Shown: positions 32,064 through 32,433 of the stretch, piece by piece
Layout of the letters: each line of letters begins with the position of its first letter
Position numbering within the stretch: the first letter of the stretch is position 1
Source of the DNA: a virus
Lineage: Duplodnaviria; Caudoviricetes
Reading direction: 5' to 3' (one strand)
IMG/VR virus record: IMGVR_UViG_3300030012_004344
Span: 1-34,166 of that record
Length of the DNA stretch: 34,166 nucleotides
Notes under the pieces: generated by a model
What the model saw: only the letters and a program-made list of their open reading frames with translations
Database searches by the model: none
What the model was told of the DNA's origin: nothing
Made by a program: the position numbers and the translations under genes

Positions 32064-32092
32064 ATTATAACAAAAAAAATAGGAAGAGTCAA
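32064..32092 (-). promoter_or_regulatory. Sigma70-type promoter TTGACT-N17-TATAAT (with TGn extension)
   Basis: -35 at 32087-32092, -10 at 32064-32069, exact 17-bp spacer. It faces the thyX-phoH gene run. Confidence 0.82.
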
Positions 32093-32102
32093 CCTCTTCC
32101 TA
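32072..32102 (-). terminator. Rho-independent terminator after the DUF4278-like gene
   Basis: Perfect 9-bp stem TAGGAAGAG/CTCTTCCTA with a 5-nt loop, followed by 8 U on the minus strand. Confidence 0.85.
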
Positions 32103-32108
32103 AAATGA

Positions 32109-32252
32109 TTAACTGCAAGGTGATGCCTTGCTTTTAACTTTAAGACCACGATACATTAGTTCGTGTCTTTCACGCTTTGCTGCTTCATCAACAACTTTTG
32201 CGTTGTACTCTTCAGTGTCGTATTCGACACCACGATAAGTGACTTTTGCCAT
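32109..32252 (-). CDS. DUF4278-like small protein (47 aa)
   Basis: MAKVTYRGVEY...LMYRGLKV has the duplicated YRG motif of DUF4278. SD GAGG lies 8 nt before the ATG. Confidence 0.82.
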   Translation of the reverse strand: MAKVTYRGVEYDTEEYNAKVVDEAAKRERHELMYRGLKVKSKASPCS

Positions 32253-32283
32253 TTGCTTGTCCTCGGTAGTAGGGGTTTTTAAT

Positions 32284-32328
32284 CCCGTTCCTTCAGTCGG
32301 CATTTGCGTCCTCCGAAGAGGATGAACG
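32284..32328 (-). ncRNA. Glutamine riboswitch-like aptamer B (Downstream-peptide / glutamine-II type)
   Basis: CGUUC A UCCUC-UUCG-GAGGA CGCAAAUGCCGACUGAAG GAACG GG: outer stem CGUUC/GAACG and a UUCG-capped hairpin, in the 5' leader of a DUF4278-like gene. Confidence 0.78.
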
Positions 32329-32330
32329 TA

Positions 32331-32373
32331 CCCGTTCCGTGTCGGCTTACTTGCGTCCCTTGCGGGATGAACG
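32331..32373 (-). ncRNA. Glutamine riboswitch-like aptamer A (tandem copy)
   Basis: CGUUC A UCCC-GCAA-GGGA CGCAAGUAAGCCGACACG GAACG GG: same core with a GNRA-capped hairpin and a 2-nt linker to copy B. Confidence 0.75.
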
Positions 32374-32417
32374 ATGTGTTTATATTAACACATTCACACT
32401 ATATAGACAAGTAATTA

Positions 32418-32433
32418 TGTATTGATTGTTACA
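32418..32433. promoter_or_regulatory. NtcA binding site (TGTA-N8-TACA)
   Basis: tGTAttgattgtTACa is an intergenic perfect match to the extended consensus, about 45 bp upstream of the aptamers. Confidence 0.7.

Follow-up and report, generated by a model that had tools for sequence, protein, structure and literature searches.

A double glutamine-type aptamer upstream of a DUF4278 gene

Do the two glutamine-type aptamer repeats that precede a small cyanophage gene act as two separate RNA switches, or do they form one? We addressed this question for a virus record of 34,166 bases, which we call the window (the whole stretch of DNA that was analysed). The double element lies on the minus strand at 32373-32284, 33 nt upstream of a 47-aa DUF4278 ORF, and T4-like cyanophage genes (thyX, phoH, PD-(D/E)XK nuclease, glutaredoxin) are found near it. 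Phage records under the names Synechococcus, Prochlorococcus, Cyanophage or Marine virus, 137 in all, match the 301 nt around the element; Prochlorococcus phage P-TIM68 matches best (86.7% over 291 nt). The 47-aa ORF matches PHROG 5049 (E 2e-22) and, exactly at the cut-off of 25.3 bits, Pfam PF14105 (25.3 bits, E 2e-5), in agreement with a protein like IF17, an inhibitor of glutamine synthetase (GS) in the host.

Read on the minus strand, copy A consists of CGUUCA (32373-32368), the P2 hairpin UCCC-GCAA-GGGA (32367-32356), CGCAAGUA, AGCCGACAC and GGAACG followed by G. Copy B consists of CGUUCA (32328-32323), the P2 hairpin UCCUC-UUCG-GAGGA (32322-32309), CGCAA, AUGCCGACU, GAA and GGAACG, again followed by G. 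An earlier note on this DNA described the shared words, the two hairpins and a 2-nt gap between the copies (UA, 32330-32329, at the boundaries drawn there), and all of these are present. Within the window, the half-aptamer pattern is found at the element only, two times, and in none of 200 mononucleotide shuffles. The copies are unequal: downstream of CGCA, copy A continues as AGUA-AGCCGACAC-GGAACG and copy B as A-AUGCCGACU-GAA-GGAACG. Each copy holds one half of the class-I E-loop, which in the crystallised class-I construct is AAGUA before P3 and GAA after it (PMC5393176; PDB 5DDP). Here and below, PMC numbers refer to the parts of those publications covered in this work. Neither copy alone has the E-loop and P3 hairpin of RF01739, with GAA missing from A and AGUA from B. 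Rfam places copy A in RF01704 with 33.4 bits (gathering 33) and copy B in RF01739 with 34.8 bits (gathering 35); such borderline scores from different families suggested that neither model fits a single copy.

Our main reading, to which we give a probability of roughly 0.7, is that the 90-nt element is a single strand-swapped RNA fold with two glutamine-type pockets that likely binds two L-glutamines and likely controls DUF4278 translation.

Collection of related elements

Pattern scans together with seven cultured-phage loci yielded, besides the window, 595 loci, many of which are chance matches; 182 distinct double elements could be parsed. The 122 loci from a loose pattern scan of genome contigs look like chance matches and were rejected. 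A single split E-loop as in the window is found in 159 of the 182 elements; 152 of these were alignable, and the 7 with bulged or unequal-length P3 strands were left out. The remaining 23 carry AGUA and GAA in both copies. Twenty of them, mostly from SAR86/SAR92 genomes, form local P3 hairpins and are ordinary tandems, whereas L388, L525 and L560 have an E-loop in both copies and yet pair across copies. One scan pattern selected the G form of copy A, no pattern fixed the base after B's GAACG, and the parser set B's register by the length of A's strand. A second sample comprised 40 elements with a long or cut-off P2 hairpin in copy A (P2a), outside the 152. To remove RNA-pattern bias, we also selected 80 loci by protein similarity, of which 75 had 300 nt upstream and 70 could be parsed. 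Three of the five unparsed loci visibly contain both halves with longer P3 strands, and two show B's 3′ half only in the stretch inspected.

Many relatives carry genes inside the element. The P2 hairpin of copy B (P2b) encloses an ORF of 49-69 aa in 92/159 relatives, with the stop codon overlapping the E-loop strand in 88 of these 92; in others the ORF sits in P2a or in both P2a and P2b. The window has none and belongs to the compact form, as do 33 of the 70 protein-selected loci. Among the seven cultured phages, P-TIM68 is compact and the other six carry a P2b gene. A weak tree built from 97 downstream genes requires 25 or more changes in whether the P2b gene is there, which suggests that it is often gained, lost or recombined. 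The P2-loop genes encode small two-cysteine proteins (L593-L598, L603, L599 and many viral loci); PHROG 504 corresponds to the P2b gene of L603 and PHROG 6471 to the P2a gene of L599.

Two loci from marine proteobacterial genomes, L601 (1473-1594) and L602, which hold the L560 and L525 elements, contain a strand-swapped pair with two full E-loops, so the swapped fold is not confined to phages. The L601 element is located among host-like genes, upstream of a 69-aa ORF without Pfam match. On a SAR86 chromosome, outside cyanobacteria, a conventional glutamine-I tandem (L552:321-655) precedes a 54-aa ORF that contains YRG repeats and matches DUF4278 weakly (E 1e-4, below the cut-off). A Prochlorococcus single-cell genome contig (L599) carries a swapped element among phage-like genes, and matches in cyanobacterial genomes are therefore probably phage DNA and not host copies. 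In L594 (1680-1874) and L609 (586-780), a manA RNA follows the DUF4278 gene. Several glnA rows in supplement 5 of PMC2864571 contain another structured P3-loop insert with its own AAGUA...GAA, one of them with a P3 like the phage shared helix; this is possibly a second kind of nested domain.

A probable single fold assembled from both copies

Comparative sequence analysis shows that P2, the E-loop (AGUA and GAA), P3 and the linchpin (the long-range pair) of an outer aptamer come from A's 5′ half and B's 3′ half. This outer domain, running through A's 5′ strand, P2a, CGCA, AGUA, P3, GAA and B's 3′ strand, would make up a complete class-I aptamer. An inner domain would replace the loop of the outer P3: A's GAACG would pair with B's CGUUC over a loop of 3-6 nt, followed by P2b and CGCA, giving a circularly permuted aptamer without E-loop that is joined to the far end of the shared P3 helix. 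We infer the swapped P1 pairing from the linchpin, the E-loop, P3 and the pocket geometry of the crystal structures. In both crystal structures the bases that follow G59 and G22 share one pocket, and cross-copy linchpins thus imply cross-copy P1s. The parts of the element are as follows.

32368-32373, minus: A's 5′ strand CGUUC(A), outer P1, predicted to pair with B's 3′ strand; C1 and G2 of the outer pocket (outer linchpin covariation, RNAalifold).
32356-32367, minus: P2a hairpin with GCAA loop, where some relatives accommodate an entire ORF (first three hairpin pairs conserved in 159/159).
32348-32355, minus: CGCAAGUA, containing the G22 equivalent, the outer linchpin C (32353) and the AGUA half of the E-loop (class-I pattern of PMC5393176; 32353 covaries with 32285).
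32339-32347, minus: shared P3 5′ strand AGCCGACAC, pairing with 32303-32295 through six Watson-Crick pairs with two internal C-A mismatches (covariation).
32323-32338, minus: predicted inner P1 hairpin of A's 3′ GAACG with B's 5′ CGUUC and a 4-nt loop that begins with the inner linchpin partner, G 32332 (inner linchpin 143/152, RNAalifold).
32309-32322, minus: P2b hairpin with UUCG loop (first three hairpin pairs conserved in 67/67 compact and 92/92 ORF-bearing elements).
32304-32308, minus: CGCAA, containing the G22 equivalent and the inner linchpin C (32306), with no AGUA after it (CGCA unchanged in 70/70 protein-selected loci).
32295-32303, minus: shared P3 3′ strand AUGCCGACU (covariation).
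32285-32294, minus: GAA half of the E-loop, B's 3′ strand GGAACG (outer P1; C58 and G59 equivalents) and the outer linchpin G (32285) (covariation, Rfam alignment).

In the outer domain, AGUA (32351-32348) and GAA (32294-32292) flank the shared helix in the manner of the RF01739 E-loop; 20/70 protein-selected loci have AAA instead of GAA. The P1 bases of RF01739 (C1-G59 and G2-C58, plus G22) are present, with strand partners as predicted above, and its long-range pair 23-60 is formed across copies. The inner-domain E-loop is absent in 159/182 elements including the window and present in L388, L525 and L560.

Covariation supports the swapped pairing

The outer linchpin joins the base in A's CG[C/G]AA to the base after B's GAACG. 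It was paired in all 152 aligned elements, 82 as C-G and 70 as G-C, a proportion that is not a natural ratio because one scan selected the G form. The inner linchpin, between B's 5′ part and the base after A's GAACG, was paired in 143/152 and broken in 9, and the within-copy alternatives were paired in 85/152 and 81/152. The inner linchpin is G-C, with both sides exchanged, in L061, L134 and L419. In L061 the two positions read C..C within copy A and G..G within copy B, which makes two mismatches if the copies fold independently and two pairs if they are swapped. In the shared helix, A8:B2 was paired in 152/152 (G-C 77, U-A 62, A-U 11, U-G 2). The other positions were paired in 151/152 (A1:B9), 152/152 (A2:B8), 105/106 (A4:B6), 101/102 (A5:B5) and 152/152 (A7:B3), and C-A or A-C mismatches prevail at A3:B7 and A6:B4, where 47/152 and 19/102 are paired. 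The two strands shorten in step (9/9, 7/7, 6/6). All 40 elements of the second sample form both linchpins and A8:B2. Among the protein-selected loci, both linchpins are C-G in 70/70, A8:B2 is paired in 69/70, and the four P1 strands are exact in 70/70 although mismatches were allowed.

Changes along the tree of 97 downstream genes point the same way for the outer domain, although the tree is weak (138 columns, 45 open forks). For the two sides of the outer linchpin the tree gives 7 and 7 changes, and 7 for both together; for A8 and B2 it gives 29 and 31, and 31 together, whereas unpaired control columns come near the sum (7 and 9, joint 15; 8 and 31, joint 39). The inner linchpin (3 and 9, joint 10) does not follow this pattern, owing to its losses. 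In a MAFFT alignment of 48 compact 9/9 elements (47 relatives and the window), pairing at the swapped positions amounts to 97.9%, with a covariation of 0.311, and 0/500 shuffles score as high. The within-copy pairs are 31.9% paired, and 292/500 shuffles score as high, i.e., they are at shuffle level. A slide control on this alignment is not independent, since the structure was derived from the same sequences. An RNAalifold consensus recovered the swapped P1s and both P2s and missed the shared P3. No P1 strand variants were found among the relatives, so the swapped P1 is without covariation of its own. In the window both linchpins are C-G under the swapped and the independent model alike, and the case for the swapped fold therefore rests on the relatives and on the split E-loop.

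Other computations were less informative. Folding the window element as a single sequence gave a z of -0.57, no better than shuffles, and the MFE structure misses P2b and P3. We rejected the energy of swapped versus independent P1 as a test: the swapped form is lower in 67/67 compact phage elements and also in 20/20 conventional tandems, so P1 energy does not discriminate. Rfam RF01739 fits L012 as one class-I aptamer from end to end with a 39-nt insert in P3 (41 bits); on 14 test loci it found separate halves in 7, the end-to-end form in 1 and no glutamine match in 6.

Doublets of this kind have been regarded as two independent tandem glutamine-I aptamers with a pseudo-cooperative response. 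PMC9481103 counts 157 glutamine doublets as pseudo-cooperative, that is independent, and the 2010 glnA alignment (PMC2864571 supplement 5) holds the A-type and B-type halves as separate single rows. Each copy in the window could close its own P1, its linchpins are C-G within each copy, and Rfam scores the halves separately. Against this stand the lack of a whole E-loop or local P3 in either copy, the shuffle-level scores of the within-copy pairs, and the 70/152 relatives in which both within-copy linchpins would mostly be G-G and C-C. Pseudo-cooperative tandems as defined in PMC9481103 are two complete independent riboswitches with a platform each, and the window element, which has no room for a second expression platform, is not of this kind. 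We consider independent aptamers very unlikely.

The covariation bears out the proposal of the earlier note that the element is a structured, selected, double glutamine-type aptamer, and argues against its treatment of the copies as separate units, since A and B fold into each other. That note took glutamine-II as its frame. It was right that the class-II pseudoknot strand is absent: copy A runs into B's P1 strand and copy B has none, the best helix of B with the 12 nt that follow its GGAACGG averaging 3.1 bp against 2.8 in shuffles (159 elements, register free). Also rejected was a short pseudoknot of class-II type (GUA/UAC in A, AAU/AUU in B), as it is not kept in relatives and the linkers vary freely. 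The features themselves, an E-loop and a three-way junction, are those of glutamine-I. A glutamine-II-like pair in which CCGA pairs with B's UUCG tetraloop in place of the pseudoknot would account for the RF01704 score of copy A and for the complementarity of CCGA and UCGG in the window. However, the RF01704 alignment breaks two pairs in the 3′ stem and draws on B's first bases, UCGG occurs in P2b of just 12/67 compact relatives (a UUCG loop in 6/67), 92/159 elements have an ORF instead of the loop, and the CCGA strand of A is paired with that of B. We regard this pairing as scarcely credible. The supposed retention of stable tetraloops also fails among the relatives: GNRA/UNCG loops occur in just 38/159 P2a and 13/67 P2b hairpins, and many relatives have a whole ORF there.

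Probable ligand and pockets of the element

The bases that touch glutamine, and the long-range pair next to them, are common to both classes (PMC6698751). Equivalents of these contact bases, C1, G2, G22, C58 and G59, are present in both pockets of the element. They are likewise preserved in both pockets of 70/70 protein-selected loci, in the inner pocket together with CGCA. A C-G linchpin is the class-II norm (PMC6698751) and occurs in single glnA rows too (2010 glnA alignment, PMC2864571 supplement 5). As the contact bases are present, the C-G linchpin is known and the gene context is that of the host circuit (PMC6212724), L-glutamine is the probable ligand of both pockets. The altered ligand raised by the earlier note is unsupported, each base known to contact glutamine being unchanged in both pockets. 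A variant class for glutamate, 2-oxoglutarate or asparagine at one or both pockets would fit the surroundings of the inner pocket, which resemble neither solved class (E-loop and pseudoknot loop are absent). All direct glutamine contacts of PMC6698751, the ordinary linchpin, and a downstream gene and NtcA box that suit the host glutamine circuit nevertheless make another metabolite improbable in our judgement.

The inner pocket is less sure than the outer one. It lacks the E-loop, its linchpin is broken in 9/152, and the linker is tight: the copies are separated by 3-6 nt, and in 115/159 elements just 2 nt follow G60 to close the inner loop, which may strain the pocket. These features would suit the same swapped fold with glutamine in the outer pocket only, the inner domain being a structural or folding scaffold or relevant only with a gene nested in P2b. 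We consider this unlikely, given the unchanged contact equivalents and CGCA, the G-C flip on both sides of the inner linchpin in L061, L134 and L419, and the full second E-loop retained in L525 and L560. With two glutamine pockets, as we prefer, coupling through the shared helix might steepen the response, and cooperativity of the double aptamer is a live possibility that the fold predicts.

Predicted promoter, expression platform and direction of the switch

Features around the aptamer suggest how the element could control its gene.

32419-32432, minus: candidate NtcA box, perfect GTA-N8-TAC, whose start lies 59 nt before the aptamer's first base (sequence).
32374-32410, minus: likely sigma70-type promoter with -35 TTGTCT (32410-32405), 17 nt and -10 TAATAT (32387-32382), the start probably near 32375 (by analogy with relatives).
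32253-32284, minus: predicted expression platform, a C-tract with G59/G60 as one possible pairing partner and, weakly, the Shine-Dalgarno GAGGA (32264-32260) as the other (folding predictions that disagree on direction).
32109-32252, minus: DUF4278 (IF17-like) ORF, 47 aa, two YRG motifs (Pfam PF14105, PHROG 5049, protein alignment).
32072-32102, minus: intrinsic-terminator-like hairpin and U run, closing a unit of ~300 nt (consensus match only).

We take GTA-N8-TAC to be the NtcA consensus. Of the 152 relatives that have 100 nt of upstream sequence, 112 carry a perfect box, where mononucleotide shuffles give 4.55, and 80 of the boxes start at -61 to -57. Its position is the same in both linchpin forms and hence gives no hint on switch direction. 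The window as a whole holds 14 perfect boxes against 6.7 expected (0/100 shuffles as high), and other phage genes may be NtcA-controlled. The promoter site of the window matches at 8/12 and was not flagged by a promoter scan; in relatives, the best -10 hexamer is TATAAT in 77/154 and ends 7-8 nt before the aptamer in 75/154. The -10 lies inside an inverted repeat of 7 bp (window 32374-32393), with a mean best stem of 5.5 in 154 relatives against 4.2 in shuffles, and we found no description of a promoter stem-loop element in the cyanophage literature searched. A near-consensus sigma70 promoter (11/12) points towards the next gene, its -35 hexamer lying inside the terminator-like hairpin after the DUF4278 gene (32064-32102, minus). 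RNA contigs from two studies (four runs) fall almost solely on 32107-32370, and some span leader and ORF. We do not count them as proof of transcription, because most are relatives at 85-95%, they tell nothing of strand or start, and divergent flanks would go unplaced.

Control might work through capture of G59/G60, freeing or hiding the ribosome site that lies 20 nt downstream. An anti-Shine-Dalgarno helix begins with the linchpin C in G-C-form relatives, and locking the aptamer is predicted to open the site in 37/40 whole leaders and 61/65 3′ segments; the same ON logic has been proposed for gifB (PMC6212724). In the C-G form, which includes the window, free G59/G60 are predicted to pair with the C-tract (0.76-0.80) in helices of ~3 bp; the helix from G59 into the C-tract averages 3.8 bp in C-G-form leaders against 3.6 in shuffles. 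Locking the 3′ segment alone is predicted to make the site less open in 77/126 and more open in 5/126 C-G-form cases, and with the whole leader 7 of 27 become more open and 9 less. These folding models favour an ON switch for the G-C linchpin form and disagree on direction for the C-G form of the window.

The likely purpose would be to tie an IF17-like phage gene to host nitrogen status jointly with the NtcA box. In Synechocystis the IF17 C-terminus is needed for GS binding, DUF4278 proteins as short as 47 aa lack it, and GS inhibition is unproven even for the host's short DUF4278 forms (PMC6212724). A more far-reaching scenario combines these elements into an obligately linked, truly cooperative two-glutamine sensor: a strand-swapped riboswitch of ocean and lake cyanophages with a permuted inner aptamer, P2 loops serving as gene slots, and an outer linchpin flip from G-C to C-G accompanying a change from an ON to an OFF platform. 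We put this forward tentatively, and would sooner bet against it than for it as a whole.

Relation to known riboswitches

Glycine and guanidine-II units fold separately and then dock, and c-di-AMP riboswitches are one pseudo-symmetric fold. Like these cooperative two-ligand riboswitches (tandem glycine, guanidine-II, c-di-AMP; PMC9481103 Table 1), the window element has two pockets, one ligand and one platform; none of the three is described, in the part of PMC9481103 covered, as two repeats exchanging base-paired strands. The outer domain resembles glutamine-I (glnA RNA, RF01739; Synechocystis gifB leader, PMC6212724) in P1 CGUUC/GAACG, P2, the AGUA/GAA E-loop, P3, the long-range pair and the contact bases, and the gifB context likewise has a downstream DUF4278 gene and an NtcA box. 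In contrast to glutamine-I, two repeats together build the outer domain here, a circularly permuted aptamer takes the place of the P3 loop, and the linchpin is C-G in the window and G-C in the crystallised RNA. With glutamine-II (Downstream-peptide, RF01704; PDB 6QN3, PMC6698751) the element shares the C-G long-range pair, the same pocket bases and the DUF4278 gene, but it has no 3′ pseudoknot stem. Glutamine binding survives when a glutamine-II aptamer is cut into two pieces after the linchpin strand, and in crystals the RNA forms a strand-swapped dimer (PMC6698751). Conventional glutamine-I tandems (PMC9481103; SAR86/SAR92, e.g., L552) also place two CGUUCA...GGAACG units a few bases apart. 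Their copies each have a full E-loop and local P3 (61-62 bits each), whereas the window type has split E-loops and cross-copy pairs.

Cyanophage glutamine aptamers and tandem glnA RNAs are already known (PMC2864571, PMC9964418, PMC9004378). The published 99-nt glnA feature of S-CREM1, whose leader is of the G-C form, spans the whole double element, and its publication, in the part covered, makes no comment on the fold. Six junction strings were absent from the glnA rows of PMC2864571 supplement 5, parts 127-129, where gaps could hide them. We found no description of the swapped fold in the literature searched; Ames and Breaker 2011, Ren 2015 and preprint supplements may bear on it. A new architecture of a known riboswitch family is, on comparative grounds, well supported as structure, with binding and cooperativity predicted.

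The element thus invites a new reading of a known family, in which some glutamine doublets counted as independent would be one linked fold. Such a fold would offer a physical route to real cooperativity for a ligand of millimolar affinity. It would be a natural instance of a strand swap that in this family was previously seen only in crystals, and also of a circularly permuted aptamer. The compact, gene-free 90-nt form of the window, close to that of the cultured P-TIM68, is directly synthesisable and testable, in contrast to the gene-containing forms. For the biology of abundant cyanophages, the element points to sensing of host nitrogen through NtcA and glutamine, and to the timing of an IF17-like protein by these signals.
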